Assembly: GCA_964489845.1 (NCBI GenBank)
Contig: CAZAZV010000002.1
Coordinates: 770 to 64,769, forward strand
DNA: 64,000 nt
Source: an uncultured Candidatus Saccharibacteria bacterium
GTDB lineage: Bacteria; Patescibacteriota; Minisyncoccia; UBA6257; GWB1-50-10
Reading direction: 5' to 3'
Positions 7,908 through 63,730 of the stretch are shown here, one piece after another. The notes beneath the pieces were generated by a model. The model searched no databases. It had not been told where the DNA came from and saw only the letters and a program-made list of their open reading frames with translations. Position numbers and translations under genes: made by a program. Each line of letters opens with the position of its first letter. Positions within the stretch are counted from its first letter, which is position 1.

Positions 7908-8558
7908 TCACACTTTGTACAACCACACGTCGACGCCGATCGTGCCGTAGGTAGTGTAGGCAATGGCCCTCCCGAAGTCAATGTTCGCGCGGAGCGTTTG
8001 GAGCGGCATTTCGCCGAAACTCAACGATTCCGTGCGCGCAATTTCCGAGCCGTTCAATCGCCCCGATACGGTGAACTTCGCGCCCCGCACGGCCTTCACG
8101 ACCTGTACGAATTGCAGGTGCCGCTTCAGCACGGTGCGGAACGGGAGACGCTTCTCGAGGTCCTGGGCAATTTGCGCCGCGACGATATTCGCCGACACGT
8201 CGGTGCGTGGGATTTCCACGACGTCCAGGTGGAGCGAGAAGGTCATCGTGATGTGCCGCTCCTTCCGGAAGGTCTTCAGTTCGCGCACGACGAGTTTGTT
8301 CAAATCGTCGATGCCGCTCCCCCGCCGCCCGATGATAAGACCCGGCTTGTTCGTCTTGATGCTCACCCGGACATCCTCCCGCGTCCGCTCGATCTCAATA
8401 CCGGCGACGCTCGCCTTCGGCAGGTGCTTCATGATGATGCGCCGGAGGAGGCAGTCCTCCTCGAGGAAGAATTTCAATGACTTCTTGAAAAACCACCTGC
8501 TCGGCCAGGGTTGCGTGATGCCCAAACGTAATGATGTCGGTTTGATGCTTCTGCTCAT
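7908..8558 (-). CDS. rpsC: 30S ribosomal protein S3
   Basis: KH domain, RLGITQPWPSRWF, 216 aa. Confidence 0.92.
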   Translation of the reverse strand: MSRSIKPTSLRLGITQPWPSRWFFKKSLKFFLEEDCLLRRIIMKHLPKASVAGIEIERTREDVRVSIKTNKPGLIIGRRGSGIDDLNKLVVRELKTFRKERHITMTFSLHLDVVEIPRTDVSANIVAAQIAQDLEKRLPFRTVLKRHLQFVQVVKAVRGAKFTVSGRLNGSEIARTESLSFGEMPLQTLRANIDFGRAIAYTTYGTIGVDVWLYKV

Positions 8559-11682: not shown

Positions 11683-11783
11683 GTTTATAAACAACCGCGC
11701 CATCCCGCTTTTGGAGAAGCGTACTTCTCGTGTGTCTCACGCAAAATGCGGACCCTCAAAACGGGAGACGAGTCGTACTGAAA

Positions 11784-11812
11784 AGTGTACCTAAACGGAC
11801 AAAAACAGTCAA
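11784..11812 (-). promoter_or_regulatory. Sigma70-like promoter TTGACT-17-TACACT for the rpmJ-rplC operon (copy 1 of a duplicated promoter/5'UTR segment)
   Basis: Minus strand reads TTGACTgtttttgtccgtttaggTACACT about 100 nt upstream of the rpmJ ATG; about 60 nt identical to 12264-12330. Confidence 0.55.
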
Positions 11813-11837
11813 GAATCTACGAAATCACGCCGGTGAC

Positions 11838-11878
11838 CAAGAAAACACTCCGAAAAAATCGGAGTGTTTTCTTGGTCT
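11838..11878 (-). terminator. 18-bp perfect hairpin immediately after the small zinc-ribbon ORF stop (terminator-like)
   Basis: gaccaagaaaacactccg-atttttt-cggagtgttttcttggtc. Confidence 0.5.
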
Positions 11879-11883
11879 TTCGC

Positions 11884-12042
11884 TTAAGCACTTGGAGACT
11901 GATGCTCCGTTGCGGGCTGACCCTGGTCTTGCGGTTCTTGTTCCTGCCGAGGTTGAGTGTTCGCCTCAACCATCGGCACCTTGCACGCTTGGCACTCTCC
12001 CATCTGTTCGGAGGTTGCGCCGCACTGTGGACACTTGTACAT
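11884..12042 (-). CDS. Small hypothetical zinc-ribbon protein (52 aa), not in the ORF track
   Basis: Translated by hand: MYKCPQCGATSEQMGECQACKVPMVEANTQPRQEQEPQDQGQPATEHQSPSA; CxxC-x9-CxxC; lies between the duplicated promoter copy 2 and the hairpin. Confidence 0.4.
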   Translation of the reverse strand: MYKCPQCGATSEQMGECQACKVPMVEANTQPRQEQEPQDQGQPATEHQSPSA

Positions 12043-12283
12043 GTTTTTAAGGTCTTTACAACGACGTACGACTATTACCGTTTCCCAGAGTATGCCTTAT
12101 TAAACCACGTCTCGCGCATTATTGCAAAAATCCGAAGATGGATGTGCTGAAAGCGGCGGGTGAGTTATTAACCAGCAAGCAAAAGAGAGATAGAGAGGGT
12201 GGTTAAGAAGGCGACGGAGCAGCTCGGCGAGACGTTCAGGCGCCTCGGTAAAGAATGAAAACGAGAGACGAGTCGTACTGAAA

Positions 12284-12313
12284 AGTGTACCTAAACGGAC
12301 AAAAAACAGTTAA
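12284..12313 (-). promoter_or_regulatory. Second copy of the TTAACT-18-TACACT promoter/5'UTR segment
   Basis: Near-identical to 11767-11812; overlaps the T-tract of the upstream terminator. Confidence 0.5.
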
Positions 12314-12341
12314 GAAAGCCCCGCGGGAGCGGGGCTTTCTT
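12312..12341 (-). terminator. Rho-independent terminator of the cohesin/dockerin operon
   Basis: aagaaagccccgc-ggga-gcggggctttctt followed on the minus strand by aactgTTTTTTgtccgttt, directly after the 12352 stop. Confidence 0.7.
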
Positions 12342-12351
12342 GGTTATTGTC

Positions 12352-13143
12352 CTATGAATGCTTCTTGCGTCGACTCCGGACACCACTGTAAATCGCGTAA
12401 CCGAGGAAGACGAGCACGACGATAATAGCTATGCCAAGGAAGATGCTATTTGTACCGAACGTCACGAATGTGGCAACTTGAGCAAGAATAGATCCCGGGG
12501 GCACAACGATAGGTTGCTCCGTCGTCGTTGCAAGCTGCTTACCGGAAGTCGTTGCTACTTCTGTTACGGGAGGCACAGTTTCCGTCGCGGGCTTCGAGGT
12601 CGGTGTTACTTGCGTAACCGGCGCTGTTTGCGTCGGCACCGATGGCGCCGCTATTGCTACCGTCGTGCGCACCGCTGCGCTCGCGAGCACGTTCTGATTC
12701 CCCGCGTCAAGCGTAAGCGAGGAATTATCAAGCGCGATGGTTCCGGTACCGCTCTTCTTAGCGTGGAACGTAACGGTCCCGAACGTGACTGCCGACGATA
12801 CGCCACCCGGATAACCGGCGGTCTTAACAAGAACACCGTTCGTGTTGTCGGTCAGGTCGTAACCGGACTGGGTAAGCGGCATCCAGGTATTCGCGAACGC
12901 AAACGAAGTAACTTCCAAGAGATTGGCGGGGTACTGGAGCTCCGTTTTGACGGTGTAGTTTTTCACTCCTCCTGGATTTACTCCAACCGTCAGTGTGAAA
13001 CTCTGGCCCTGGCTGACATTCACAGTAACCGGCGCGAAAGACACACTCGTCGCGGCAAGCGCAGGCACAACAAGAACGAATGCACCGGATATTCCTACTA
13101 ACAGGGCAACTATTGATCTCCGCATGATAGTTAAACTGTCCAA
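12352..13143 (-). CDS. Membrane-anchored cohesin-like domain protein (signal peptide, beta-sandwich domain, Thr/Pro linker, C-terminal TM anchor)
   Basis: N-terminal signal peptide; FTLTVGVNPGGVKNYTVKTELQYPANLLEVTSF resembles the cohesin core; TQTAPVTQVTPTSKPATETVPP linker; C-terminal TM FLGIAIIVVLVFLGYAIY plus RSRRKKHS. Confidence 0.55.
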   Translation of the reverse strand: MDSLTIMRRSIVALLVGISGAFVLVVPALAATSVSFAPVTVNVSQGQSFTLTVGVNPGGVKNYTVKTELQYPANLLEVTSFAFANTWMPLTQSGYDLTDNTNGVLVKTAGYPGGVSSAVTFGTVTFHAKKSGTGTIALDNSSLTLDAGNQNVLASAAVRTTVAIAAPSVPTQTAPVTQVTPTSKPATETVPPVTEVATTSGKQLATTTEQPIVVPPGSILAQVATFVTFGTNSIFLGIAIIVVLVFLGYAIYSGVRSRRKKHS

Positions 13144-14240
13144 TAAACCATGAGCAGGTTGAAATCAAGAACGTCGACCTTACCATCACTGTTGAAATCA
13201 GCCGTGTCACTCGCACCCGTATTCCCCCAATGTACCATGAGCGTGTTGAAATCCAACAGGTCAACCTTACCATCTTTGTTCATATCAACTTTCTGGGAAG
13301 CGGGAGTCACGCTTATTCCTCCGCCTCCGCCGCCTCCACCCCCACCACCACTTGGAGCCGGAGTAGAGACAGTGTGAGAAGCCAAGAAATAGGATGCCCT
13401 CGTTGCGCCGAAGGTGCATGCTCCAGCACCCACCACGCATGTTGCCGGTGACGTAATCCCATCGCTTGTCCAACCGGAACTACCGGTTGTCGAACGAGTG
13501 ACGTTCAATGTCTGACCATTGAAACTCGCGCCCACGAAGATGGTGATGCTTATCGGTGAACTGAATTGCAACTCGGTACCTACCAGTCCCCATTGAAGCG
13601 CCCCATCAGCCACTACGCCCGAACCGAGTCCGGAAAGCGAACTGACAGCGGTAGAACTCGCGGTTAGGTTATTGGCGTCAAAAGTTCCGCCCCCCGCTCT
13701 CGTAATCGTGGTACCCTGCGGAAGAACCACCACGCTCGTACCGCCACTCACTGCAATGCTCACCACCACCTGCTGGGTGGTATTGACGGAGGTAGCGCTT
13801 CCCGCGGCTCCGGAAACAGCGAGTGTTCCGTTGTCCAATAAACTCGTGAGATTGGTGCTGCTGACCTCCACTTGGTTGATGGCAAACGATAGATTCAACT
13901 GTTCAACCATACCACTCTCGAACTGGGCAATCTGCGGCGCTTCAATTCCGGAAACCGAGAAGTGAATAGTGTCACCCGTCTGCAAGTCATCTCCTTGAAC
14001 CAACAGTTTCTGGTCATAGGCGCCTGGACCTCCGTACTGTCCCGCTACCGCCGTTGTCACTCTTCCCTTTTCAACGCCGTTAACACTGGCTATGAGCACG
14101 GTACCGACAGGAGCAGGAGCGTTGTTTATGGTGAGATTGCCATAAAAGATGTGTGGTAATTGAGGTACCTGCGCAAGAGCGGCTATCGGTAACGCCAAAA
14201 GCGCGGCAGAAATAACAAGAGCTCGAATTGATTTTCTCAT
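13131..14240 (-). CDS. Secreted dockerin-containing protein (signal peptide, beta-rich domain, poly-Gly linker, type-I dockerin)
   Basis: C-terminus has two canonical dockerin repeats, DMNKDGKVDLLDFNTLMVHW and DFNSDGKVDVLDFNLLMVYW, after an 11-Gly linker. Confidence 0.75.
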   Translation of the reverse strand: MRKSIRALVISAALLALPIAALAQVPQLPHIFYGNLTINNAPAPVGTVLIASVNGVEKGRVTTAVAGQYGGPGAYDQKLLVQGDDLQTGDTIHFSVSGIEAPQIAQFESGMVEQLNLSFAINQVEVSSTNLTSLLDNGTLAVSGAAGSATSVNTTQQVVVSIAVSGGTSVVVLPQGTTITRAGGGTFDANNLTASSTAVSSLSGLGSGVVADGALQWGLVGTELQFSSPISITIFVGASFNGQTLNVTRSTTGSSGWTSDGITSPATCVVGAGACTFGATRASYFLASHTVSTPAPSGGGGGGGGGGGISVTPASQKVDMNKDGKVDLLDFNTLMVHWGNTGASDTADFNSDGKVDVLDFNLLMVYWTV

Positions 14241-14300
14241 AGGCGTAATGACTTCGAGGAACTCCCCCGACGTATTTTTGTCGGGGCGCCATCGTCAATA

Positions 14301-16967
14301 TTAGAGGTTGTTCTTCGTGAATGACTTGGCGGCATTCATAAAGACCCAGTAGCCGTCATGCGTGGAGAGGTCCTTTGCCGGCAATCCGGTAATGGGGTTT
14401 GCGTTCAGGTCTCTGTCCCCGTCGCTCGCCCATGGATTACTGCCGGAATCTTTCCGTGCGTTGTAGGTATCCGGTACGTAGAGCGTTATCATACCGGCCA
14501 CCGTTTCCGTGTTTTGGATGGACGAGAACTCGTCTTGTACCGTACCGGAATTATTCGTCCCGACCAAGTTCCATCCGGCGACGAGGTCTTTGCTTGTCTG
14601 TGACGGCGCACTGCTTGTGTCGGCGTACCTGAACCCTACGCCGCCACCACTATCTACCTTCGTGTAGAACGCGCTGATTGGTTTGACGATGTCCGCGTTA
14701 TCTGCGGCTGGCGAACCGAATGCCCCATTCCCATAAATGAGTAGTGCCACGGTCCCCGTCGCATTGTTATCCACAACCGCAGGTGCTTCAGAGAGAAGTT
14801 TCGGAGCGGAAATTAAAGCCCACGCATCTGCATCGGTGAGAGCGATGGTTTCGTCGTACGTATCTCCATTCGCTTCCAAGAGCCACGGCCGGTAACTGAC
14901 ATCCGCAGAAACCGCTCCGGCGGCAGGACCCGAAGCAGCGCCCCAGTAGTTATCAGTTGCATCAAGTGTTCCGGAACCTCGTGCGGCGTAACCGACCGCA
15001 GCCATCGAATTGTCATAGATACTGTTGTTGTGCACAACCGTCTCCGCGTCAATCGGCTGATTGACATATATCCCAGCAGCATTCCCGTATATCTCATTCC
15101 CCGCTACTGTCACCGCCGAAGAATCGGCGCGTACCGTCGAGGGCAAATTGGTGGTATAGTCGGTATTATCGAACGCAACGCCGGCACCTGCGGTATAGCC
15201 GTGGACTGCGTTGCCCGCTATCGAGGTCGCGTAGAACTGCCCGCCGATACCGGAGCCATTCGCGAGGGAATCGGTGCCTATGACTTCATTGTCAGAAATC
15301 ATACTGCTACTCAAATACCCCGTAATACCGAATTGGGAATTTTCTACTTTGTTGTTGGAGATGGTGGCTCGCGTGAGAACGCCGTCATTGGTATCTGCCG
15401 TATTGGCGTCATTGCCGCCGGTAATCCCACTCGTACCTGCACCTTTCACCAAGTTCTGCTCCACATCAGCTACCTTAGCTTGCCAGAGATTAATGCCATC
15501 AACACTCGCCGACTCAATAATGTTGTTTTTCACAACCACATTGTCCGTGACTCCTCTGACATGAATCGCCTTTGCCGGACTGCCGCCGATTGTGAAACCG
15601 TCGATGGTCACCGTACCAGTTATTGGTCCGAATGGACCGATTTGTACGGACCCGGACGGATCGCCGGAAGAAATGACGGATTCATCACCGCTTCGAGTTC
15701 TCGCATCATTACCTGCCTGTGCGCCGTTCAAGATAAGCGGCTTATTGATATGGAGCGTTTCACTATATGTTCCAGCTGCAACATTAATCGTGTCATCATT
15801 ACCCGCATTTGCAATCGCTTCAGCAATAGTGTTGTATCCGATCTTACTCGTCTCATTGAACGCGTTATAACTACGAGTTATGGAACAATCTGATGTTTCG
15901 CACCAAGGAGAGAACGAGACGGCTCCATCAAGACTGCTAGTTGCTGGGCCGGTCACGCTCCCCCAATAATTATTAGCCGCATTAATAGCTGGGCTTCCAG
16001 CGGTCGTTGAGATATTGTACTCGTTATCTGTAAACCTTACGTTAGTGATGCTAGATAGGATTCCCCCGCCATACGCAAGTACGCCCGCTGCAGTATCATC
16101 GTCAGGTGCATAGTTGAAATTGGAGATGTTTGCACCGGTAACAGACCCCGTAACAGTACCACCACCTCTATTCCACAAAACAATTCCATTCTGCGCAATT
16201 GCATCCGTCGGACCGGCGCCTGTAATGCTGCCACCAAAAACGGTTAAGGTAATGGTGGCATGTACGCCGCTCGTGGCACCATTGCCATTGATGGCATCAA
16301 TGCCGTTCTTCTGGAATCCAGAGATATCGCAATCACTCACGGTCAAATCTGCTGTTTGTTCGTTACCAGCGTCAACCGCTATTCCTTGTCCCGTTTGACT
16401 CCCGTTTATTGTATATGTACCGGCTATGGCACAATTTTCTAAACTACCCGTTGATGCATTCCAGAAAAGAAGAGCATCCGGACCACCGCTACCAGGCGCT
16501 TTCCCATTATCCTTAATACCCAAACTCTGGAGAGTAATATTGGTTGAGCTACTCACCAACACCGATACCTTCATGTTCGCGGTGTACTTGTGGGTAATAC
16601 CACTCGCAACGAGCATCGTCGGTTGTATAACGGTAGAGGACTTTCCAGCACCGATAATTAGTAAATCCGACTTATTGACCACTGAGAAACTTTCGTATTG
16701 ACCGGCTACGACGGTGATTGTATCGCCAGCGGACGCAGCATCAATAGCGGACTGAATCGAGCTGCAAACAGGATCAGTTGCACTGCATGTGCTGGTTGCA
16801 GACGAACCATCGACTGTCCACGACGTTGTCGCCGCTTGCGCAACACCCCCAAGGAACAAAAAACCGCTCACGAGTAACGCTGCGGTTATGATAACTGTAG
16901 AAACTTTGAGAACTGTTGAGTTGAAGAACGAAAAAGATTGTATAAGGGGTTCGCCCAAATGATTCAT
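14301..16967 (-). CDS. Secreted right-handed parallel beta-helix (PbH1) repeat protein, about 889 aa
   Basis: Signal/TM MNHLG...FLGGVAQA; many PbH1-type repeats (NNIIESASVDGINLW, ISNNKVENSQFGITG, GNAVHGYTAGAGVAFDNTDY, HNNSIYDNSMAAVG). Confidence 0.7.
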   Translation of the reverse strand: MNHLGEPLIQSFSFFNSTVLKVSTVIITAALLVSGFLFLGGVAQAATTSWTVDGSSATSTCSATDPVCSSIQSAIDAASAGDTITVVAGQYESFSVVNKSDLLIIGAGKSSTVIQPTMLVASGITHKYTANMKVSVLVSSSTNITLQSLGIKDNGKAPGSGGPDALLFWNASTGSLENCAIAGTYTINGSQTGQGIAVDAGNEQTADLTVSDCDISGFQKNGIDAINGNGATSGVHATITLTVFGGSITGAGPTDAIAQNGIVLWNRGGGTVTGSVTGANISNFNYAPDDDTAAGVLAYGGGILSSITNVRFTDNEYNISTTAGSPAINAANNYWGSVTGPATSSLDGAVSFSPWCETSDCSITRSYNAFNETSKIGYNTIAEAIANAGNDDTINVAAGTYSETLHINKPLILNGAQAGNDARTRSGDESVISSGDPSGSVQIGPFGPITGTVTIDGFTIGGSPAKAIHVRGVTDNVVVKNNIIESASVDGINLWQAKVADVEQNLVKGAGTSGITGGNDANTADTNDGVLTRATISNNKVENSQFGITGYLSSSMISDNEVIGTDSLANGSGIGGQFYATSIAGNAVHGYTAGAGVAFDNTDYTTNLPSTVRADSSAVTVAGNEIYGNAAGIYVNQPIDAETVVHNNSIYDNSMAAVGYAARGSGTLDATDNYWGAASGPAAGAVSADVSYRPWLLEANGDTYDETIALTDADAWALISAPKLLSEAPAVVDNNATGTVALLIYGNGAFGSPAADNADIVKPISAFYTKVDSGGGVGFRYADTSSAPSQTSKDLVAGWNLVGTNNSGTVQDEFSSIQNTETVAGMITLYVPDTYNARKDSGSNPWASDGDRDLNANPITGLPAKDLSTHDGYWVFMNAAKSFTKNNL

Positions 16968-17081
16968 ATTTTTAGGTGCTGTGGGGGCGTTTTGCAGAGA
17001 ACGTTCGACCTGCCATCCCGAGCAAATACCCCGCACATGTGGTGCTGAAATTAAGGAGCACCAAGTTTGGCCTTAGTTACG

Positions 17082-17109
17082 AGTGTAGAACCATTGAGCT
17101 CGATGTCAA
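17082..17109 (-). promoter_or_regulatory. Promoter TTGACA-16-TACACT for the beta-helix/dockerin/cohesin operon
   Basis: Minus strand reads TTGACAtcgagctcaatggttcTACACT about 110 nt upstream of the 16967 start. Confidence 0.5.
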
Positions 17110-17278
17110 GAGTAACCAAAACAGCGCCTCCCAGAGGTGGATAAAAAGCGGAAAACGGCATATCACGCCAAATTCGTCAAGAAAACTTAGTAACGAATTG
17201 AAAAAGAACGCCAGCAATCAACTACGGTGATTGCACTTTTAATACTCCGAAGCGGGTGGGTTTCTTTCAATCATTTTC

Positions 17279-17318
17279 TCTAGAACGAGAAACCCTGCCA
17301 TATGGCAGGGTTTCTCTG
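17279..17318 (-). other. Perfect 13-bp palindromic hairpin immediately downstream of rpsJ
   Basis: gagaaaccctgcc-atat-ggcagggtttctc; no T-tract, so function (terminator or processing site) is uncertain. Confidence 0.35.
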
Positions 17319-17639
17319 TTACACCATCTTCACTTCCACGTCTATGCCGGCGGGGAGATTCAAGCTCCCGAGCGCTTCAACGATGCGCTGACTCGCTCCC
17401 GGCACTTCGATAAGGCGCTTATGCACCTTCATCTCGAACTGTTCGCGCGACTTCTTGTGCACGAAGGGAGAACGGTTCACTGTGTATCGCCGGATGGCGG
17501 TCGGCAGCGGAATCGGCCCGATGACTTCTCCGCCGTACCGCTGGATCGCCTCGACGATCTGGCGAACCACGCTCTCGATAAGGCGCGCATCGTAACTCCT
17601 GACGCGCAACCGCAATTTGCTTGTCTCCTCCTTAGCCAC
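17319..17639 (-). CDS. rpsJ: 30S ribosomal protein S10
   Basis: LRLRVRSYDARLIESVVRQIVEAIQRYGGEVIGPIPLPT...VHKKSREQFEMKVHKRLIEV. Confidence 0.92.
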   Translation of the reverse strand: MAKEETSKLRLRVRSYDARLIESVVRQIVEAIQRYGGEVIGPIPLPTAIRRYTVNRSPFVHKKSREQFEMKVHKRLIEVPGASQRIVEALGSLNLPAGIDVEVKMV

Positions 17640-28250: not shown

Positions 28251-31098
28251 TGGTGCGCAACGTATCCAGTTCCCCCGAGAGTTCCGAAAATTGCTTCAGC
28301 AGCCGCTCGCGCTCGGCTTCTCCGATGACGGAAGCGATACGCGATTTGATTTCTTTCTGCTTCACTTTGAGCATCTCGATCCGCAGCTGCCGCATAAGTT
28401 CTTTGAGTTCGTCTGCCAGTTCCTCATGCGGAACATTGTTGAACAAATAACTCGCCTCGAGTTCCAGGAGTCCCCCCTCGGCCGTTCTGCGCAGGAGTAT
28501 GTCCTGGTAATGCTCCGGCAAAAGGTCCTGCTCCGATTCCACTTCAGCATAAAACGAGTCATCGGAGAACGCAACGGTGAGGAGCCGCCGCGCGATGCGG
28601 TCTATGCGTTTCACTTCGGCTTCCTGCGGCGTCTCCGCTTCGACCGGCGCCGGTCCGCCGGCTTTTACGGTCGCGAACGCCTCGCGGAGCATCTGCTCCG
28701 AAATGCCCGCTGCGCGGGAGAGTTCCTTGAGCCACATATCCTGCTCCACGGCGCTCTCAAGGCGCGAGATGAGCCGCAGCATCGTCCCCACCATCCGCTT
28801 CCGCGCCGCGGGGTCGAGCGTGCCGCCGAAACGGACGGCGAAGAGCCGCTTGAACGCGGGTTCGGCTTGCGCGACACGTTTTGCGAACCCCTCCGCGTCT
28901 CTTTCCACAAACTCCGCCGGGTCTTTAAAGGTGCCGAGATCAACCGCCTTGACATAAAAATCGAACGTCCCGAGGAGCTCGAGGGAACGCTCGAGCGCCT
29001 CGATGCCCGCCTCGTCGCTGTCGAAACTCACGACCGCCGTGTCGGTGAGCCGCCGCAACGCGGTGAGATGCGCCGGCGTCAAACTCGTCCCGCACACCGC
29101 GACGGCATTCGTCACGCCCGCCTGGTGCGCCATGAGGGCATCCATATATCCCTCCATGACGAAAACGCTTTTCTGCTGCGCGATGTCCCGCTTCGCCTGC
29201 GAGAACCCGTAGAGGAGTTTCGATTTTTGGAAAATCGGCGTCTCGGGAGAATTCACGTACTTGGGGTTATTGTCGTCGTCCGCGAGCACGCGCCCCGCGA
29301 AACCGACGACCCTGCCGATATTGTTCCAGAGCGGGAACATCACGCGGTTCGCGAAAAAATCTTTGTAGAGTCCTCCTCGCTTCACGGCAAAGCCCGCTTG
29401 GACGAGTGTCTCGATGGAATGTCCTTTGTGGAGGAGGTACACGGTGAGCGCGTCACCACCGGGCGCATAGCCGAGCTCAAAGCGTTTCGCTGTCTCGCCG
29501 GTGAGGCCGCGTCCCTTCAGGTACGCGATCGTTTCCGCGTTCTCTTTTAGCTTGCTCCTGAAGAAGTCCCGCGCGAGCTCGTTCACTTCGTACAATTCGG
29601 CGAAGCGGTGCTCCATGCCGCCCCGGCCGCGCGAAAGTTCGATACCCGCCCGCTCGGCGAGAAGCTGGAGCGCCTCGGGAAACTCAATGCCCTCGTAGAG
29701 CATCACGAACTTGATGACGTCTCCCCCCTGTCCGCAATTCGCCACCGCAAAATGATTTGCTACGTATGAATGGTCTTCGTCGACAGTTAAGTTATAGACA
29801 GGACCGGTATACGGTTCTTTCCACACTTCCTTTACGGGAAGGAGCCAATAACGCCTTCCTTCGACCTCCTCGTATATGAAGCTATGCTGGGACTTCGCCT
29901 CCTCCGACCAGAGGATTCTGTAGACCTCGCGATGATTCACGCCTCGCGCATCGTGCCTTGTCCCCCGAACTCCGAAAGAAGGAAAGAGGTTGTTTCTTAA
30001 GAGTATGTCAATAACCTGCTCAGCAAGAATTCTCGAAATACTCGTGATGCTTTTATGCGTTTTTGTGGAACGACTGAATATACCGGTATGCCCATCGCCT
30101 CTGAAAATGGCATCGACCAGCACCTTCTGCTTTTCTGGAGGTAAAACTTGGAACACAAAGGGTATGTGTTTATACTCTGCTCCCTTGCCGCAAAGATTCT
30201 CAAAAATATTGGCGAGCTGTGCATGGCACGCGGTAATTTCGAGACCTGTTTTCTTTGTCTTGTTCGGATTTCTTTCATAAATCTTCGCTTCAAGTCCGAA
30301 AACGTTTTTCACGAGACGGACGATATCGTCGGCAAATTCCCGCTCATGATTCCCCAAACTGAATCGGATATACGCCCGATGACTGCTTCCCTCAGCTATC
30401 CAATAACCGAGAAGTCTCAGAAAGTCGTCATCAAGGGCAATGTTGAGTGAAATATCCCGCGAATGAGGACCAAACGTATATCCCTTGGTCAAATAGTCAT
30501 TGAGGTCGATGCGGGTCAGTTCGGCAACCGAGTTCTCAATCGGATAAAACACAAAATCGGCCGGTGCAATGCTGCCCGCATTGATTTCGATGATACTTCC
30601 GTGTTGCCGCGCCGCCTCGGAGAGCGTACGGGCCGTGCCCCGCGATACCGCATCGCGGCACAGACGATAAAACTGTTTGGTTTTCTTGCGGTAAGAAGTT
30701 GCGGGTCGCAGAACCTTCAGCTTATGGTCAGCGGTCATGGATACTGTCTCATTAAGTTTTCTCGTTCTCACATGAACTAAATCGCCCACATAATTTCTCA
30801 CATGAGTCGCGAGTACTCTCCGAACCTTCCCCGAACCGGAGTAGACGTAATGATTCTCGTCAATGTCTTCTATGTTATGGAGACCAAAGGGAGTTTTTAC
30901 CTTCTGACCCGGCGGGAAACACCCGAAGCAGTGCCACATCCGTCGCTCGGGAGACACCATGAAGGACGGAGTTTTCTCCTGATGGAAGGGGCAGAGCGCT
31001 TTGTAGTTCTTGCCCGCCGGCCTCAGGTCGATGTATCCCTTTAACACATCGAGAATGTCGGTGCGCTCTTTCACGCGCTCCACGTCAGTTGTTGCCAT
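28243..31098 (-). CDS. dnaG: DNA primase DnaG interrupted by a 395-aa LAGLIDADG intein in the zinc-binding domain
   Basis: Exteins: [24 protein letters not shown] | [12 protein letters not shown], then TOPRIM ([17 protein letters not shown]...SFDSDEAG). Confidence 0.85.
29737..30921 (-). mobile_element. Intein (Cys1 ... Asn395, with a Cys at the following extein position) with a LAGLIDADG homing-endonuclease domain, inserted in the DnaG zinc ribbon
   Basis: Starts CFPPGQKV (block A), TADH (block B), [11 protein letters not shown] and [12 protein letters not shown] (LAGLIDADG blocks), ends ...HFAVAN followed by an extein Cys. Removal restores the HCFGCGQGGD primase consensus. Confidence 0.75.
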
Positions 31099-31173
31099 AC
31101 TGATATTATAGGCAGCCCCATGCCCAAACTCAAAATTATCGGTATCGGATACCCATAAAGTTATCCACAGGCA

Positions 31174-31202
31174 TTGACAAAAATCTGATTATTCGATATA
31201 AT
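31174..31202 (+). promoter_or_regulatory. Perfect consensus sigma70 promoter TTGACA-17-TATAAT
   Basis: TTGACAaaaatctgattattcgaTATAAT about 55 nt upstream of the 31259 ATG, which has a strong AAGGAGGA Shine-Dalgarno site. Confidence 0.6.
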
Positions 31203-31258
31203 ACGAGCAGTAAACCCGACGTTGTCGGGCTTCACAATCAAATACAAGTGCAAGGAGG

Positions 31259-31912
31259 ATGCGGATGGACAAATCGCAATCAATCGGGGCCGTACGCGGT
31301 TCGCAAACAAAACTCGAAGCATGCTTCGATAACCAGCTCAAGACGCTGGAACGGCGCGGCGTGGGAATTACGGTTCTCTCGAAACTCCAGGAACAGAGGA
31401 GCGCCGTCATCGACGAGGCGATTCGCATCATCGGCGGGCTGCCGGACGAAACGGACGATGGTAATTTTCCTTTCATCCCCATCATCCCGCTCACGTATTT
31501 CGGCTACTATGGCCTCGTGACGCTCGCGATGCACGATGCGGAAGAATACATCCAATTCGATGTAAGCGAGATAAGCGACGTTGTGAAAACACCGGAAGAG
31601 CCGTACTACGTCCTCAACGTAGAGGATGGGACAATGACGCGCGGCCTGACGGTGGAGAAGGGGACCAAATTTGTCATCGACCGGGAGAGATTCCCGCTCA
31701 CGACCGTTGAGGCGCTCAGCCTTTCCCTCGTCACGGACGTGCTCACTCGTCACGACATCGCGGCAACGTGCTCACGGCGCAAAAAGGACTTCACCAAGAC
31801 GGCGATGGTACCCCTCATCTCCCAGGACCACCTCGACTGGATACTGGGGTTTATCGGGAAACCGGACTGCGGAACGCCGTCATGCCAGCGCAGGCGCCGC
31901 CCCACCTCCTAA
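31259..31912 (+). CDS. Hypothetical protein (217 aa) with its own consensus promoter and terminator
   Basis: ORF with strong RBS; no recognisable domain. Confidence 0.5.
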   Translation: MRMDKSQSIGAVRGSQTKLEACFDNQLKTLERRGVGITVLSKLQEQRSAVIDEAIRIIGGLPDETDDGNFPFIPIIPLTYFGYYGLVTLAMHDAEEYIQFDVSEISDVVKTPEEPYYVLNVEDGTMTRGLTVEKGTKFVIDRERFPLTTVEALSLSLVTDVLTRHDIAATCSRRKKDFTKTAMVPLISQDHLDWILGFIGKPDCGTPSCQRRRRPTS

Positions 31913-31921
31913 TGTGCTAAA

Positions 31922-31948
31922 GGCAGGCCATCACCGACCTGCCTTTTT
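31922..31948 (+). terminator. Rho-independent terminator
   Basis: ggcagg-ccatcaccga-cctgcc followed by TTTTT. Confidence 0.6.
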
Positions 31949-31953
31949 CATAT

Positions 31954-32406
31954 TTACGCCTCGAGTGTTTTGAAAACGACTTTCCCGGAGTAGTCGAGCG
32001 CGTCTTCCGCCTTGATTTTCTGGAGCGGCGGGAGGTTTGAAACAGGAACAAATTTATATTCTGAATGTTCGTGACTCAACGTGATGTGGCTCATATCTGA
32101 AACGGCGCATGTGAAAACCGCAAGCTGTGTATGGATGCGGGGAAGGAAGTAGATGCCGGTGAGCGTCTTCGGCTCGACGTCGAGTCCCGTCTCTTCCCGA
32201 CACTCGCGCTTGAGCGCCTTATGGAGCGTTTCCGTTTTCTCCGCCGCGCCGCCGGGCAAACCCCACTCGTCATCGTACGAACTGTGCAGGAGGAGAATTT
32301 CTCCGGCGCTATTCATGATAACTCCCTGCACGGCGAGGCCGGGCGGCGAGAGGCGCGCAACGAGGTCTCCGAAGAGATATACCATGCGCTTCAATACGTG
32401 TTTCAT
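31954..32406 (-). CDS. NUDIX hydrolase
   Basis: Nudix box GLPGGAAEKTETLHKALKRECREETGL. Confidence 0.8.
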   Translation of the reverse strand: MKHVLKRMVYLFGDLVARLSPPGLAVQGVIMNSAGEILLLHSSYDDEWGLPGGAAEKTETLHKALKRECREETGLDVEPKTLTGIYFLPRIHTQLAVFTCAVSDMSHITLSHEHSEYKFVPVSNLPPLQKIKAEDALDYSGKVVFKTLEA

Positions 32407-32426
32407 AACCTCGATGCTATGCGGTT

Positions 32427-32657
32427 TTATAATGTCTCCAAAATTTCCAAATACTGCTCGCGGGTTATATTCAGGATACGGAGATTGTTGCGGATAACAA
32501 AAACCGGCAGCGTACTATCTTGCGGAACCACTACCGGTCTCTTAACGTCTTCACGGCGATAGATGCGATGGTCTCCCTTCTCACGAACAAACACGCAACC
32601 GACCCGGAGTAAAAATTTCTCGAACGTTTTCCAATCGACAGGACGAATCCTTGGCAT
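32427..32657 (-). CDS. hicA: HicA-family (YcfA-like) toxin
   Basis: 76 aa; FEKFLLRVGCVFVREKGDHRIYRR...PVVVPQ matches the HicA pattern; directly downstream of a HicB-like gene. Confidence 0.6.
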   Translation of the reverse strand: MPRIRPVDWKTFEKFLLRVGCVFVREKGDHRIYRREDVKRPVVVPQDSTLPVFVIRNNLRILNITREQYLEILETL

Positions 32658-32663
32658 CCTACA

Positions 32664-32945
32664 CTATGCGCAAACCGCAACCGAGACGGGTTCAGAACCC
32701 TGTGAGACAATTTCCGGCGGCTGCCAATTTCGCTCCAGCTTCTTCCAACCAAGCTCCGAGAGCACTTCATCAAGCGTTCCCATCTTGACCAATTCTTCAA
32801 AGAAAAGGCGGACCGCTTCGCCAAATCGTTGCTTCACCTGCATCTCACTCTCTCCCGACGTAGACAAATCCAAAGCGGGTGTATATGCCACATATCGCCC
32901 CTCTTCTTTTAAAACCGAAACCGGCAAAACGCAACGCATTTCCAT
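32664..32945 (-). CDS. hicB: HicB-family antitoxin (UPF0150 N-terminal domain)
   Basis: LKEEGRYVAYTPALDLSTSGESEMQVKQRFGEAVRLFFEEL. Confidence 0.6.
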   Translation of the reverse strand: MEMRCVLPVSVLKEEGRYVAYTPALDLSTSGESEMQVKQRFGEAVRLFFEELVKMGTLDEVLSELGWKKLERNWQPPEIVSQGSEPVSVAVCA

Positions 32946-33000
32946 AAGCTTAACTATATCATAAAAGTCTTAATTTTCAACGTACCCTTCATAAGTCAAA

Positions 33001-33027
33001 AAACCGCCGGTCTCTCGGCGGTTTTCA
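33001..33027 (-). terminator. Terminator of the rpsL-rpsG-fusA operon
   Basis: aaaaccgccgg-tctct-cggcggtttt, T/A-rich on both sides. Confidence 0.6.
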
Positions 33028-33049
33028 ATATAAACGTAGTTCGTAAAAA

Positions 33050-33125
33050 CTACTGTCCGACAATACTCTCGGCAATGTTTCTTGGCACAATGCCGTAGTG
33101 CGAGAATTCCATATTGAACGTCGTC
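33050..33125 (-). pseudogene. Diverged remnant of a fusA 3' end (last about 25 codons: ...[24 protein letters not shown])
   Basis: 42 nt identical to the true fusA 3' end, then about 75% identity to the stop codon. Confidence 0.7.
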
Positions 33126-33261
33126 GTCCCGCCAGGGCGGGACTCCTCCCCATAGGGCTTCAGCCCTCTGGTGTCACTCGCTTCGCTCGTTCCAGTCACC
33201 CCAAGCGGGGAAACTACAGTTTCCCCGACCCCCTTCGCACGTTCAATACGGTAAGTCCCTG
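33126..33261 (-). repeat. Family-1 structured miniature element, copy R, immediately downstream of the fusA stop
   Basis: About 135 nt with hairpins (gtcccgccctggcgggac; ggggaaactacagtttcccc) and a T-loop-like end cgttcaatacgg; about 70% identical to copies at 35392-35544 (inverted) and 45866-46035. Confidence 0.65.
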
Positions 33262-35391
33262 CTATTTCCCGACTATCTCTTCGGCGAGGTTTCTTGGCAC
33301 AATGCCGTAGTGCGAGAATTCCATATTGAACGTGCCTCTCCCCTGCGTCATCGAACGCAACGTCGTCGAGTAGCCGAAAAGTTCGGCGAGTGGTATCTCC
33401 GATTCGATGACGCGGACTTTCTCCCGCTCTTCCATCGCGGTAATCGAGCCGCGCTTCGCGTTGATGTCGCCCGTCGCGTCTCCCAAGAATTCGTTCGGCA
33501 CGATGACCTGCACTTTCATAACCGGCTCGAGGAGCTGCAAGCCCGCTTTGCGCGCCGCCGATTGGAATGCCATCGAGCCGGCGATTTGGAATGCCATATC
33601 CGAAGAGTCCACTTCGTGGAACGAGCCGTCGTAGAGGGTCACCTTCGCGTCGATGAGCGGGTAGCCGGCAAGCACGCCTCTCGCGGCGGCTTCCTTCACC
33701 CCCTTCCCCACCGACGGAATGAATTCCTGCGGGATGGCGCCGCCCTTAATCGCGTTCACAAATTCGAATCCTTCCCCGCGCGGCAACGCCTCGAGTTTCA
33801 AAAATACGTGCCCATACTGACCGCGCCCGCCCGACTGGCGGATGTACTTTCCTTCCGCCTCGGCGCTCCCCATAACTGTTTCCTTATATGCGACTTGCGG
33901 GCGTCCCTGCGTCGCCTCGACGCCGAATTCCCGCTTCATGCGGTCGATGACGATCTCAAGGTGCAGTTCTCCCATGCCGGAGATAATCGTCTCGCCGGTA
34001 TCGGGGTCGCCCGACACGCGGAACGTCGGATCTTCTTCACCAAGCTTGTGGAGCGCCACGCCCATTTTCTCCTGGTCCACTTTGCTCTTCGGCTCGACGC
34101 GGACGGAAATGACCGGCTCGGGAAAGACAATCGATTCCAGACGTATCGGATGCGACGGGTCGCAGAGCGTGTCGCCGGTTGTCGTGTTCTTCAGGCCGAC
34201 CAGAGCGCCGATGTCGCCGGCATACACTTCCGGAACTTCCTCGCGGTGATTCGCATGCATCCTGAGAATCCGCCCGATACGCTCCTTCTCGCCGTTCGAC
34301 GAATTCAGGACGTAGCTTCCGCTCTGCAGCGTTCCCGAGTAGAGGCGGAAGAACGCGAGCTTCCCCACGTAAGGGTCGGAGGCGATTTTGAACGCGAGGG
34401 CCGCAACCGGTTCGTCGTCCTTCGGGTGGCGCTCGAATTCCTCGTGCGTCTTCGGGTCGAATCCCTTCACGGGCGGCAAATCGGCGGGACTCGGGAGATA
34501 GTCGACGACGGCATCGAGCAAAAGTTGCACGCCTTTGTTTTTCAGCGCGCTGCCGCAGAAGACCGGCACCACCATTCCTTGCAACACTGCCTTCCGGAGC
34601 GCGTGCCGTATCTCGTCCACCCCAATCGGTTCTTCTTCCAGATACTTGTGGAGCAAGGCATCATCCGCTTCCGCCGCCTTTTCGAGCACTTCGTGACGGC
34701 GCGTTTCCGCTTCCTGTTTCAAGTGTTCCGGTATGTCTATCTCGCGTATTTTTTCCCCGTGTTCGCCCTCGAAGGTGTACGCCTTCAGAGCGACGAGGTC
34801 GATAACGCCGGAGAAGTCGGACTCGAGACCGATGGGTAGCTGGACAGCGACCGCATTCGGCGTCAGCCGCTCGCGGATAGAGCGCAATCCTTTTTCAAAA
34901 TCGGCGCCGGTCCGGTCAAGCTTGTTCACAAAGCAGATACGCGGCACGTGATACTCGTCGGCGTAGTGCCAGTTCGTCTCCGACTGCGGCTCGACGCCTG
35001 CGACGCCGTCAAACACGACGACGGCACCGTCGAGCACCCGAAGCGAGCGCTTCACCTCGACGGTGAAATCGATGTGCCCGGGGGTGTCGATGAGATTGAT
35101 GCGGTGCTCGTGCTCTTTCCGCAACTCCTTCAAGCGCTCTGCGTCTTCGACACCTCCCCGCACGTACGTGGGCGTCCAAAAACATGTCGTCGCGGCGGAT
35201 GTAATCGTGATGCCACGCTCGCGCTCCTGTTCCATCCAGTCCATAATCGCCTGCCCCTCGTGGACTTCTCCGATCTTGTGGGAAATGCCGGTATAAAAAA
35301 GGATGCGTTCGGAAACCGTCGTTTTCCCGGCATCAATGTGAGCGATGATACCGATATCTCTAACTTTCTCTATGGGGTATTTTCTGGGCAT
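33262..35391 (-). CDS. fusA: Elongation factor G
   Basis: 709 aa; [22 protein letters not shown]; domains II-V. Confidence 0.97.
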
Positions 35392-59474: not shown

Positions 59475-60698
59475 CTACTCCAAACTTCTCCTTCCCCGCA
59501 ACTCCCGGTGGTACGTGATGGCGAAGCGGTGCGCCTCGTCCCGCACGCGGATGAGCGTCTCCTCCGAGGTGCCGCGCGGCACGCGGCCGATAAACTCGTT
59601 CTTCTTCCGCTTCGGCCCTTTCGCAATACCGACGACCGGCACGGAAATATCGTGTTTCGCAAGCACTTCCTGCACCGCATGAACCTGCGCCACACCGCCA
59701 TCGACGAGGACAGTGTCCGGCAGCGGCCAGTTGTCCTGTGGCGGAATGTGCCGCAGGCGCCGCGCGAGCACTTCCTTCAGCATGCCGACATCGCCACCCG
59801 CTTCGGTCCGGAAAGCGCGGATGCGGAATTTGCGGTACTCGCTCCGCGAGGGTTTGCCGTTCCTGAACACGACCATCACGCCAACCGCCGACGTGCCCGA
59901 TATATTCGAGATGTCGTACCCCTCTATCCGTTCCGTTTGTTCCTCTCGCGCCGCATCTCTGCTGATGAGCGCGATATCGTTCACGTGTGTGAGGGCGAAA
60001 AGCTGCCGCTTCGCGCGCTCCGCCGCTTCGTATTCCTGCCGCTTCGCGTACGTTTTCATATCCCGCTCAAGCCGCCGGACGAGCGCCTGCCGTTCGCCTT
60101 TCAAAACCTGTTTCAGTCCACGAAGGTCGCGCCGGTACTTTTCCTTTTCGAAATTCCCCGTGCACGTCCCCGGGCAAAGACCGAGTTCCGCATCGAGGCA
60201 CGGCCGCTTGAACGTACCGATGTCGTGCGGGTTGTGCGTGCTGAACGGGAAAATCTTCCGAAGGAGCTTCAGCGCGACCGTAATCTGCGAACTTTGCACG
60301 AAGGGACCGAAGGCGCGCGCTTTTTCCTGCTCCGTGAGTTCCTTTCCGCGCATAAGTTTCACCTGGGGTGCCGCGCCGCGCGTCACAACGACATAGAGAA
60401 AACTCTTATCGTCTTTCTCCTTGACGTTGTACGGCGGGTAGTACCGCTTGATGAGCTGCGACTCGAGCATGAGTGCTTCGAGCGCGGTGTCGGTCTCCTT
60501 CGTCTCGATACCGTCTATCAAGTTCACCATGCGCTCAATGCGGCTGTCGTGGGGACGCTCGAAATAGCTTCGCACGCGGCGCGACAAATTCCCCGCCTTT
60601 CCGACGTACAGAATCTTCCCCCGCTTGTCCTTCATCAAGTACACGCCCGGCGTCTGCGGAATTTTCTCCAGTATCTTTTTGGTAGTATCTTGGATCAT
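59475..60698 (-). CDS. uvrC: Excinuclease ABC subunit C, short form (GIY-YIG plus RNase H-like, no C-terminal HhH)
   Basis: GVYLMKDKRGKILYVGKAGNLSRRVRSYF GIY-YIG; UvrBC motif region. Confidence 0.75.
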   Translation of the reverse strand: MIQDTTKKILEKIPQTPGVYLMKDKRGKILYVGKAGNLSRRVRSYFERPHDSRIERMVNLIDGIETKETDTALEALMLESQLIKRYYPPYNVKEKDDKSFLYVVVTRGAAPQVKLMRGKELTEQEKARAFGPFVQSSQITVALKLLRKIFPFSTHNPHDIGTFKRPCLDAELGLCPGTCTGNFEKEKYRRDLRGLKQVLKGERQALVRRLERDMKTYAKRQEYEAAERAKRQLFALTHVNDIALISRDAAREEQTERIEGYDISNISGTSAVGVMVVFRNGKPSRSEYRKFRIRAFRTEAGGDVGMLKEVLARRLRHIPPQDNWPLPDTVLVDGGVAQVHAVQEVLAKHDISVPVVGIAKGPKRKKNEFIGRVPRGTSEETLIRVRDEAHRFAITYHRELRGRRSLE

Positions 60699-60705
60699 TT
60701 ATTCA

Positions 60706-61029
60706 CTACCTCACTTCCGACCCGGGCATAACTTTCTTGTCGGGCGTGAGAAGCGCCAAACTGCCCCCATCATCGCTCGCGGCAAGGAGCATCCCCTGGC
60801 TCTCGAACCCCATGAGCGTCCGCGGCGCGAGGTTTACGACAACAACAATCTGCCGCCCGACGAGTTCATCGGCCTCGTAATACTTCGCGATACCGGCGAC
60901 GATTTGACGTTCCTCCGTCCCGATATCAACGCGCAGTTTCATAAGCTTCTCCGAGTCCTCAACCCGCTCCGCGGCGAGAACCTTCCCGACCCGCAATTCA
61001 ACGTTTTTAAAATCTTCAAAAGATATCAT
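60706..61029 (-). CDS. tRNA-binding domain protein (CsaA/Myf-like OB fold)
   Basis: LRVGKVLAAERVEDSEKLMKLRVDIGTEERQIVAGIAKYY...QIVVVVNLAPRTLMGFESQGMLLAA. Confidence 0.75.
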   Translation of the reverse strand: MISFEDFKNVELRVGKVLAAERVEDSEKLMKLRVDIGTEERQIVAGIAKYYEADELVGRQIVVVVNLAPRTLMGFESQGMLLAASDDGGSLALLTPDKKVMPGSEVR

Positions 61030-61056
61030 GGAATTATTTTATCATCACTTGATTAC

Positions 61057-61397
61057 CTATTGCAGCCGGCTCCCGAGCCCCACATCCGGCTTGCCGGGCG
61101 TGATAAGGACCCACCCGCCGCCTTTCATGTTCCTAAATCCGAGCGTCAGAACCTCGGAAGAAAAGGACGCGATGCGCTTCAGCGGGAAATTCACGACGCA
61201 GACGACAAGCATACTAGACAGTTCTTCTTTGGTATGCGCCCCGACGGCCCGCACGCTTGACGTTTTTACACCGAGCTCCGGCCCGAAATCTATCTTCAGC
61301 TTGAACGCCGGCATCCGCGCTTCGGGAAACTCATTGACCTCAACGACTTTCCCGACACGAATATCAATTTTTCAAAATCTTCGTATGCAACGGTCAT
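61057..61397 (-). pseudogene. Tandem paralogue of the tRNA-binding protein, disrupted by a -1 frameshift in an A5 run
   Basis: Frame 1 gives MTVAYEDFEK; after gaaaaattg the alternative frame gives IDIRVGKVVEVNEFPEARMPAFKLKIDFG... A 6th A would restore EKIDIRVGK. Confidence 0.55.
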
Positions 61398-61580
61398 GAG
61401 ATCCCCTTCGGCCGCTCTTTTCAGTTTTTCCTCATCGAATTTCACAGCTCCGCGTTTCGCAAAGTGATCATCTCCATCTTATTTTTATCATATAAGGTTA
61501 TATGATAGTATTTTGGCTTCCTGTAATTTCGGGAGGGTCGAGAACTACAAAAATTAAAGCATGGTGGCTGTCTTCTCGCT

Positions 61581-61628
61581 GCTCAATATCTTTAGAACGA
61601 GATGTTCTCTGAATTTCACCATTTTCAT
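61581..61628 (-). repeat. 48-nt exact direct repeat = duplicated 5' end (MKMVKFREHLVLKILS) of the ASCH gene at 62656-62859
   Basis: Identical to 62812-62859; minus strand reads ATGAAAATGGTGAAATTCAGAGAACATCTCGTTCTAAAGATATTGAGC, then a stop after 6 more codons. Confidence 0.75.
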
Positions 61629-62165
61629 ACCGGTTTCGATACAAGTTTCAGGTACACCTCGCGCAAGAGTTTAGTATCATCCAGCGCGTGATGCTCCCGA
61701 TATTTCGTGTGGTCAATCCCCAACTCGTGGTAAAAATTGTTTTTGTCGCCATGGTAATAACTCTCCGGACTCACGCCAAAACCGAAAAGGATTGACGCGA
61801 AATCAATCGGTATCCAGTGAAACGGTGCCACCAGTCCCGCATAATTTATAGAGATAGAGCGCATCAAATTGATTCACGTACGCGACCATAAAGGGTTCAC
61901 CATCTCCCACGAACTTTTTTATTCTCTTCGCCGCCTCTTCTCTCCCGATTTTCTCTTCCGTAAGGAATGGGACAACGTGCTCCTGTACCCATTTGTCCAC
62001 AGCACCATCCCATTCCAGTTCGACGTATAATTCCTCGCCATTCAGTTTCACGAGTCCTACGGAAAGCAACTCTCCTTTATAAGGGTCTAAGCTCGTAAAT
62101 TCGGTATCGACGAATACGATATTATCTGAAAAAGGCGTGAATGGTTTCATAATTTCTTCGGCCAT
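61625..62165 (-). pseudogene. DEDDh (DnaQ-like) 3'-5' exonuclease split by a frameshift near 61850
   Basis: Exo I VFVDTEFTSLDP and Exo II-like AYVNQFDALYL in one frame; Exo III HHALDDTKLLREVY in the overlapping frame (ORFs 61803-62165 and 61625-61867). Confidence 0.55.
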
Positions 62166-63727: not shown

Positions 63728-63730
63728 ATC

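Follow-up and report, generated by a model that had tools for sequence, protein, structure and literature searches.

The DNA considered here is a stretch of 64 kb, referred to as the window, in which the genes for the ribosomal proteins S10 (rpsJ) and L3 (rplC) stand 5.8 kb apart. Positions are those of the window, and all genes in and around 11760-17319 lie on its minus strand, where the order is tuf, rpsJ, a hairpin, a promoter-like site, open reading frames (ORFs) for proteins of 888, 369 and 257 residues, a terminator-like hairpin, a small zinc-ribbon ORF, rpmJ and rplC. It is probable, in our judgement, though well short of certain, that this block is a surface-display cassette conserved in Patescibacteria, that it occupies a spacer between two ribosomal-protein transcription units, and that its three larger products assemble on the cell surface in the manner proposed below. 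The S10 of the window is 57-91% identical to that of Patescibacteria genomes and places the organism among Patescibacteria of the Paceibacteria/Jorgensenbacteria type. Patescibacteria (or CPR, for candidate phyla radiation) are in the main uncultured and are believed to live in attachment to other cells; how they hold very large surface proteins is poorly known. Pfam domains were scored against Pfam's own gathering cut-offs. The features of the locus are as follows.

18837-17641, minus strand: tuf, upstream of rpsJ
17639-17319, minus strand: rpsJ (ribosomal protein S10), last gene of the tuf-rpsJ unit (Pfam Ribosomal_S10, 8.2e-32)
17316-17287, minus strand: perfect palindrome of 15+15 nucleotides, terminator-like, directly 3' of the rpsJ stop (inverted repeat, 100% complementary)
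17109-17082, minus strand: promoter-like TTGACA-16-TACACT, ~115 nucleotides upstream of the start of the beta-helix gene (10/12 consensus matches)
16967-14301, minus strand: secreted double beta-helix protein of 888 residues (Pfam Beta_helix, 35.2 bits against a cut-off of 25.9)
14240-13131, minus strand: secreted dockerin adaptor of 369 residues (Dockerin_1, 30.4 bits against 22.9)
13125-12352, minus strand: membrane-anchored single cohesin of 257 residues (fold comparison and orthologues; the ORF can be extended to a TTG at 13143)
12341-12312, minus strand: terminator-like hairpin (13 pairs, 8 of them G-C) with T-run, 11 nucleotides past the stop of the cohesin gene (sequence)
12319-12258, minus strand: repeat copy A, TTAACT-18-TACACT and ~20 nucleotides of transcript start (repeat search)
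12042-11884, minus strand: zinc-ribbon ORF of 52 residues (ORF and ten small homologues)
11877-11835, no strand assigned: perfect 19-bp hairpin directly after the zinc-ribbon ORF (inverted repeat, 100% complementary)
11819-11758, minus strand: repeat copy B, TTGACT-17-TACACT (11812-11784) and ~20 nucleotides of transcript start (repeat and promoter search)
11682-11566, minus strand: rpmJ (L36), the sole copy in the window (Pfam L36, 9e-24)
11517-11092, minus strand: rplC (a short L3 of 141 residues; Pfam Ribosomal_L3, 4e-14), followed by rplD, rplW, rplB, rpsS, rplV and onwards

An earlier note on this DNA had described the three larger proteins, all of which are present; it had overlooked the zinc-ribbon ORF as a fourth small gene, and rpmJ is likewise additional in comparison with related genomes.

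The 257-residue protein is made up of a signal peptide, a cohesin domain (residues ~25-160, nucleotides 13053-12646), a linker rich in Pro, Thr and Glu, one transmembrane helix predicted by hydropathy (residues ~228-251) and a basic tail. Proteins of the same architecture form a tight family in Patescibacteria, with at least 174 members, and every member examined has one cohesin domain. The Pfam Cohesin profile (PF00963) is matched at E <= 0.1 by 30 of 42 aligned members, and its cut-off of 24.1 bits is exceeded by orthologues that are 45-58% identical to the window protein (P0118, 40.4 bits; P0042, 29.3; P0006, 27.2; P0015 and P0056, 25.9 each; P0063, 25.7), four of these six reaching profile position 137-138 of 139; among the orthologues, ones that are 54-58% identical to the window protein exceed it along the entire domain. 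An AlphaFold model built on the family alignment has residues 26-160 mostly at a predicted local distance difference test score (pLDDT) above 90. When it was compared with the PDB by Foldseek, ranks 1-46 were all cohesin modules (E 1.1e-8 to 2.6e-5, probability 1.00), with a target-normalised template modelling score (TM-score) of up to 0.79 against solved cohesins. Some family members are already named 'cohesin domain-containing protein' in their source databases. The modelled fold and the orthologues support the identification of the protein as a cohesin. The ectodomain had been thought cohesin-like, and its structure was to be predicted; the model superposes on solved cohesins, so the cohesin fold is upheld, and the orthologues above the cut-off agree with it, although the protein's own sequence does not score with Pfam. 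As a separate observation, the family conserves a motif, SLLAxxGxxxTLGTxS, immediately in front of the C-terminal transmembrane helix and basic tail (12373-12500, residues ~210-251 in the window), and at one of the loci compared below, L093, a neighbouring and unrelated protein of 439 residues ends similarly (SLLAAMD, a transmembrane segment, KKRKKE); this type of ending could be a shared sorting or anchoring signal.

In the 369-residue adaptor, a signal peptide is followed by a transthyretin-like N-terminal beta-sandwich (residues ~27-120), a middle beta domain (~121-292), a linker of 11 glycines (298-308) and a two-repeat type I dockerin (319-369, nucleotides 13286-13134). The Dockerin_1 profile (PF00404) is matched above its gathering score over residues 319-365. 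Calcium-loop motifs of 12 residues stand at residue 319, DMNKDGKVDLLD, and at residue 348, DFNSDGKVDVLD, and the two segments read DMNKDGKVDLLD followed by FNTLMVHW and DFNSDGKVDVLD followed by FNLLMVYW. This is the type I pattern of two tandem segments of ~22 residues, each with a calcium loop (D or N at positions 1, 3, 5, 9 and 12) and then a helix; helices are predicted at 328-336 and 357-367, and the repeat is visible in the DNA itself with a spacing of 87 nucleotides. The dockerin behind a glycine linker that the earlier note had recognised is thereby confirmed, with its Pfam score, two canonical calcium loops and exactly 11 glycines. The AlphaFold model of the adaptor has a mean pLDDT of 84. 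Searches of Pfam, of NCBIfam and by fold found no enzyme domain in it. Among its 104 homologues, some already carry the name 'dockerin type I domain-containing protein' in source databases.

The 888-residue protein begins with a hydrophobic segment, a signal or an anchor, that ends in AQA; two right-handed beta-helix modules of ~300 residues follow (69-355 and 378-696), and then a C-terminal domain (~665-888). Its assignment as a beta-helix protein is sound in that Pfam Beta_helix (PF13229) passes its gathering score in three stretches; a NosD-like match (2.3e-14) falls below its own cut-off, and nothing passes in an NCBIfam scan. Each module recurs, at 45-65% identity, in numerous modular surface proteins from Patescibacteria, from DPANN and methanogenic archaea, and from Chloroflexi. 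The protein deposited at NCBI, P0225 (679 residues), begins at residue 210 of the ORF and has no signal peptide. Alignments with homologues begin at residue 11-25, which is our reason for taking the long ORF as the real gene; its ATG at 16967 is probably the true start, and the start deposited for P0225 is probably wrong.

Nine independent loci with a cohesin-family member were compared (the window, L081, L083, L085, L087, L089, L091, L092 and L093). In eight, a dockerin-bearing gene lies directly upstream of the cohesin gene or two genes from it, and this neighbourhood holds across 39-100% cohesin identity. The full three-gene form recurs in L087/L088 and L089/L090, with large proteins of 886-922 residues, dockerin proteins of 370-375 residues that are ~70% identical to that of the window, and cohesin proteins of 238-253 residues. 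Neither cassette is near ribosomal genes: the former lies between a methyltransferase gene and purD, and the latter adjoins DUF5677 and a nucleotidyltransferase gene. L081, L083 and L092, which are more distant versions, have a short adaptor of ~200 residues in which the same N-terminal LPHxFYG domain is joined through a Gly linker to a dockerin, and their large partners are made of YDG/MBG_2/Big repeats; in L085 and L091 the large protein itself carries the dockerin. Identity between the dockerins is 49-64%, even in proteins that otherwise differ. The large protein keeps its C-terminal domain (motifs GWNLVG...GYWVFM), for which the window and L089 show 64% identity and which is still detectable in L081, while the N-terminal modules are exchanged between cassettes, the N-terminal part of the L089 homologue being unrelated to that of the window. 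There is also a single chain of 1272 residues, P0238, on a 7.8-kb metagenome contig, in which the same double beta-helix (37% identity over residues 21-696) is joined to Pfam Dockerin_1, Cohesin and FlgD_ig-like domains, and which is a fused counterpart of the cassette. The cassette is, on this comparison, a conserved Patescibacteria module for which the ribosomal locus is not a particular site. That a cohesin and a dockerin encoded side by side imply a surface complex, as had been suggested, is favoured by the conservation of the arrangement in eight loci out of nine.

On either side of the block the gene order is standard and collinear with that of relatives. The gap between rpsJ and rplC is ~90-500 nucleotides in 24 of 26 related Patescibacteria loci, as against 5.8 kb in the window, and those 24 short spacers contain neither L36 nor the cassette; the additional 5.8 kb, rpmJ included, is therefore derived. 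The block has a G+C content of 51-53%, compared with ~58-60% on both sides. The earlier proposal that a normally tight rpsJ-rplC linkage has been interrupted thus agrees with the spacing in relatives, and since the synteny comparison that it called for gives a short spacer as the ancestral state, an insertion is upheld. A terminator hairpin and a TTGACA-type promoter, together with a leader that has a second hairpin, are present in many of the relatives' uninserted spacers, and a hairpin equivalent to 17316-17287 also follows rpsJ in L001 and several other relatives. It follows from these spacers that rpsJ and rplC probably belong to separate transcription units in the clade. Other cargo is found at the same point. 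In the closest relative, L001 (contig CAYYYM010000034.1, 1190-2628; S10 91% identical), a gene for a Fic-domain protein of 278 residues (motif HPFEDGNGRIGR) stands directly after rpsJ, flanked by a direct repeat of ~140 nucleotides that consists of the rpsJ 3' end and its terminator hairpin and whose two copies have the hairpin loops CCAAGG and CCTTGG; a NYN/LabA-like ORF comes next. L027 (1552-3200) has a spacer of 1.65 kb with an ORF of 250 residues, and that of L014 is 565 nucleotides long. The spacer looks like a recurrent insertion point, with different cargo in L001 than in the window, and the position of the cassette is a tolerated insertion at an operon boundary that has no evident functional link to the ribosomal genes. 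An integrated mobile element or genomic island was considered and rejected: there is no integrase or transposase among the ORFs of 11.7-17.3 kb, no repeat pairs the ends at 17.0-17.3 kb and 11.7-12.4 kb beyond chance matches of 14 nucleotides, and neither phage records (searched with the DNA) nor plasmid records (searched with the cohesin protein) gave a match.

Other features of the region may be mentioned for their own sake. It is unusual for rpmJ to lie directly upstream of rplC with a promoter of its own. By tblastn there is one L36 copy in the window and none in the related loci searched (up to 10 kb beyond S10), and the 748 nucleotides (1-748) after map (749-1513) contain no infA, rpmJ or rpsM ORF and no Rfam match. 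The spacers of L009, L010, L011, L016, L019, L022 and L024 have a common leader upstream of rplC, with a TTGACA-type promoter (in five of the seven), the motif GAGACAAGTAGCC and, immediately ahead of the start codon, a hairpin AACAACCGG...CCGGTTGTTTTTTT; this looks like an uncharacterised ribosomal-protein leader or attenuator, and the leader of rpmJ in the window resembles it only in part. Most related Paceibacteria-type genomes match the 141-residue L3 over 128-141 residues, and the L3 ORF of L027 has 208. The short L3 of the window fits the shortening of ribosomal proteins in CPR bacteria that is reported in PMC9297842. Low G+C (48-54%, against a window average of ~58%) also occurs at 30000-34000 and 60000-64000, where tblastn found no further cohesin or dockerin.

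The TTGACA-16-TACACT promoter and the hairpin with its T-run lie where they had previously been placed, in each case by consensus match (17109-17082 and 12341-12312). The pattern TTGACW-N15-19-TACACT has three sites in the window, against 0.01 expected, and two of them are the cassette promoter and copy B (11812-11784). The third, TTGACT-17-TACACT at 7953-7981, falls within the 3' end of rpsC, a short way upstream of rplP, and could be an internal promoter; possibly this organism favours TACACT as its -10 hexamer. A promoter segment of ~60 nucleotides had also been noticed to occur twice, and so it does, far beyond chance: 48 nucleotides are 98% identical, the similarity extends to ~62 nucleotides with one mismatch and one indel, and a 31-mer from it has exactly two occurrences in 64 kb (0 expected). 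The repeat spans the -35 and -10 hexamers and ~20 nucleotides beyond them, and the similarity ends abruptly on both sides. Copy A, which partly coincides with the tail of the cassette terminator, stands ahead of the zinc-ribbon ORF, and copy B is upstream of rpmJ-rplC. The explanation then offered, that the cassette had been inserted through duplication of the ribosomal-operon promoter, is not supported. Between the copies, which are 500 nucleotides apart, lie the zinc-ribbon gene and its hairpin and nothing else; the cassette is not bracketed by any repeat, and a scar of the 5.5-kb insertion is accordingly ruled out. What the repeat represents is a promoter duplication, recent and local, that goes with the small zinc-ribbon gene. 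Apart from one tRNA-Gly, no leader or other RNA was found in Rfam, either for the region at E <= 1 or for the whole window at gathering score, and the 62-nucleotide repeat is therefore not a known RNA element. The zinc-ribbon ORF itself (MYKCPQCG...CQACKVPMVE with an acidic and Pro-rich tail) has only weak Pfam zinc-ribbon matches; it is probably a real gene, since ten small homologues (best E 6e-9) keep the same CxxC...CxxC core, MYKCPxCG...CxxCxVxMVE.

All three larger proteins have N-terminal hydrophobic segments and would be exported by the Sec pathway. The 257-residue protein would then be held in the membrane by its C-terminal helix, with the Pro/Thr-rich stalk lifting its single cohesin off the membrane. 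We infer that the adaptor binds this cohesin through its calcium-dependent two-repeat dockerin, and its other domains might grip the beta-helix protein by the conserved C-terminal domain of the latter. The outcome would be a non-covalent assembly on the outer surface with an exchangeable 'head'. The site may have tolerated the cassette because, in the clade, a terminator and a promoter already stood between rpsJ and rplC, and the ribosomal genes downstream would retain a promoter of their own, copy B.

A number of observations tell against this scheme. The HMM (hidden Markov model) searches that had been proposed succeeded for Dockerin_1 and Beta_helix, and not for Cohesin in the window protein itself, which has no PF00963 match even at E <= 1. 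A search of PDB chains with the family profile likewise returned no cohesin, only short matches to phage tail tube and major tail proteins at the first strand, so that the relationship is remote in sequence. A fold search with the adaptor's non-dockerin domains returned only generic beta-sandwiches (transthyretin-like, usher C-terminal domain, ZU5-like). The 888-residue protein has no dockerin, for which reason its way of joining the complex is a matter of inference. L093, a distant family member, is the only one of the nine loci without a dockerin neighbour. The promoters and terminators are known by consensus match only, and exact-protein look-ups with S10 and with the zinc-ribbon protein found no independent assembly across either junction.

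These points have to be set beside the other explanations that may be offered. The block might be a minimal enzyme display, similar to a cellulosome or amylosome, in which a polysaccharide lyase or hydrolase, namely the beta-helix protein, acts for example on the wall or capsule of a host cell and is tethered by cohesin and dockerin. This overlaps with the surface-display reading and differs from it only in the function of the head. The earlier note had stated that no enzymes are present, which is unproven, as the modules belong to a NosD/CASH-like class that includes carbohydrate-active enzymes; they match NosD-like and parallel beta-helix repeat families, and homologous modules occur in proteins named 'glycosyl hydrolase family 28-related' and in others with pectinesterase or Pel9A-like Pfam domains (L091 included). 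However, no catalytic family passes its cut-off for the 888-residue protein, where the generic Beta_helix alone does so; the same modules are also combined with many purely structural or anchoring domains (PG_binding_1, SLH, Ig-like repeats), and the heads in other cassettes consist of YDG/MBG_2/Big repeats, as is typical of adhesins. An adhesin and a carbohydrate-active enzyme are both conceivable as the head, and we consider enzyme display unlikely, while taking it seriously. Another explanation, less likely again, is that the cohesin and the dockerin each bind other partners, elsewhere in the genome or among host-cell molecules, and are adjacent through co-regulation only. It would be in keeping with the many non-cellulosomal modules whose partners are often unknown and with the cohesin-family gene of L093; on the other hand, the neighbourhood is kept at all the other loci despite wide divergence of the cohesin, both modules are strongly conserved, the dockerins even in otherwise different proteins, and tblastn over the window finds just one cohesin and one dockerin.

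Two further explanations concern the locus rather than the proteins, and we regard both as very improbable. One is that the contig is a chimera of metagenome assembly, in which a foreign segment of lower G+C was joined into a ribosomal cluster. The drop of 5-7 points below the flanks would suit this, as would the want of a second assembly over either junction, the look-up with the cohesin protein having returned just a 1.3-kb contig (L082) that lies inside the cassette. Against it, the sequence departs after rpsJ and returns exactly at the collinear point, so that two precise misjoins would be needed; the cassette promoter and the ribosomal promoter of copy B have an unusual -10 hexamer, TACACT, in common; and both L001, the closest relative, and L027 hold insertions in the same spacer. 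Misassembly is unlikely. The other is that the genes between rpsJ and rplC are an ancestral set of this lineage and were lost in relatives. All that speaks for this is that the L001 sequence breaks off 1.4 kb past rpsJ, where it too lacks contiguity; it is opposed by the short spacer in 24 of 26 loci across Paceibacteria-type genomes, by the different and mutually unlike positions of the cassette homologues, and by the Fic and NYN-like genes that L001 has at the site. The surface-display reading remains the one that we prefer.

It may be asked how far this reading can be extended. Anchor, adaptor and tail domain might form a plug-in display found across the Patescibacteria, on which giant and fast-evolving adhesin or lytic heads are mounted and exchanged, and which serves as the main host-contact apparatus of the lineage; we offer this tentatively and think it doubtful. 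If it were true, episymbiotic bacteria would attach to or attack their hosts through heads (beta-helix, YDG/MBG_2 and Big repeats) carried on modules so far known mainly from cellulosomes. A compact cohesin-dockerin module would give a testable handle, namely two small domains with measurable binding and a tail domain as a candidate cargo tag, and the cassette would serve as a marker for those variable surface proteins on which host range probably depends. A lesser point is that the rpsJ-rplC spacer of this clade would be an operon boundary that repeatedly accepts foreign genes.

The locus and its products can be compared with several known systems. The order of the S10 operon (rpsJ-rplC-rplD-rplW-rplB and so on) is preserved on either side of the block; in the window, however, rplC does not follow rpsJ immediately, there being a gap of 5.8 kb with rpmJ before rplC, and in the clade even uninserted spacers have a terminator and a promoter. 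In contrast to a cellulosome, the window system lacks a multi-cohesin scaffoldin, with one cohesin per family protein and in the 64-kb window, and it lacks a carbohydrate-binding module (no Pfam match) and a recognised partner among carbohydrate-active enzymes, the dockerin being on a protein without an enzyme domain.

Non-cellulosomal cohesin and dockerin modules have been reported across bacteria and archaea, mostly with untested partners. Such modules, or modules like them, are reportedly widespread and their partners often unknown, as is said to have been set out by Peer, Smith, Bayer, Lamed & Borovok in 2009 (FEMS Microbiol Lett 291:1). The window shares with them the occurrence of a cohesin and a type I dockerin in an organism without a cellulosome, on proteins without glycoside hydrolase domains. 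The phenomenon as such is already known (Peer et al. 2009, as cited in PMC10066038). What differs here is the conserved Patescibacteria gene cassette, with its single cohesin on a C-terminal transmembrane helix, its small dedicated adaptor and its large protein with a variable head. Full-text literature searches found no description of a Patescibacteria cohesin-dockerin cassette, and for this reason the cassette form, the transmembrane-anchored single cohesin, the dedicated small adaptor and the tail-tagged exchangeable large protein appear to be undescribed.

The closest analogies are structural. The cellulosome anchoring scaffoldins of Clostridia (type I cohesins of OlpA and OlpC with dockerins, PDB 3ul4 and 4dh2; CohA2-Doc0917 of C. 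acetobutylicum, 6kgc) have the same cohesin fold as the model of the window anchor (Foldseek E 1e-8 to 4e-7, target-normalised TM-score 0.63-0.73, identity 12-14%), and in them too a single surface-displayed cohesin receives a dockerin-bearing partner, as is predicted here. OlpA and OlpC are anchored by SLH modules, whereas the window anchor uses a transmembrane helix and SLH has no Pfam match in the window proteins. The best structural agreement (target-normalised TM-score 0.75-0.79, root-mean-square deviation ~3 Å) is with the cohesin modules of C. perfringens glycoside hydrolases (PDB 2vo8, 2jh2, 2w1n and 2o4e), which are likewise non-cellulosomal; these are parts of large secreted enzymes in a distant phylum, whereas the cohesin of the window is a free-standing membrane anchor.

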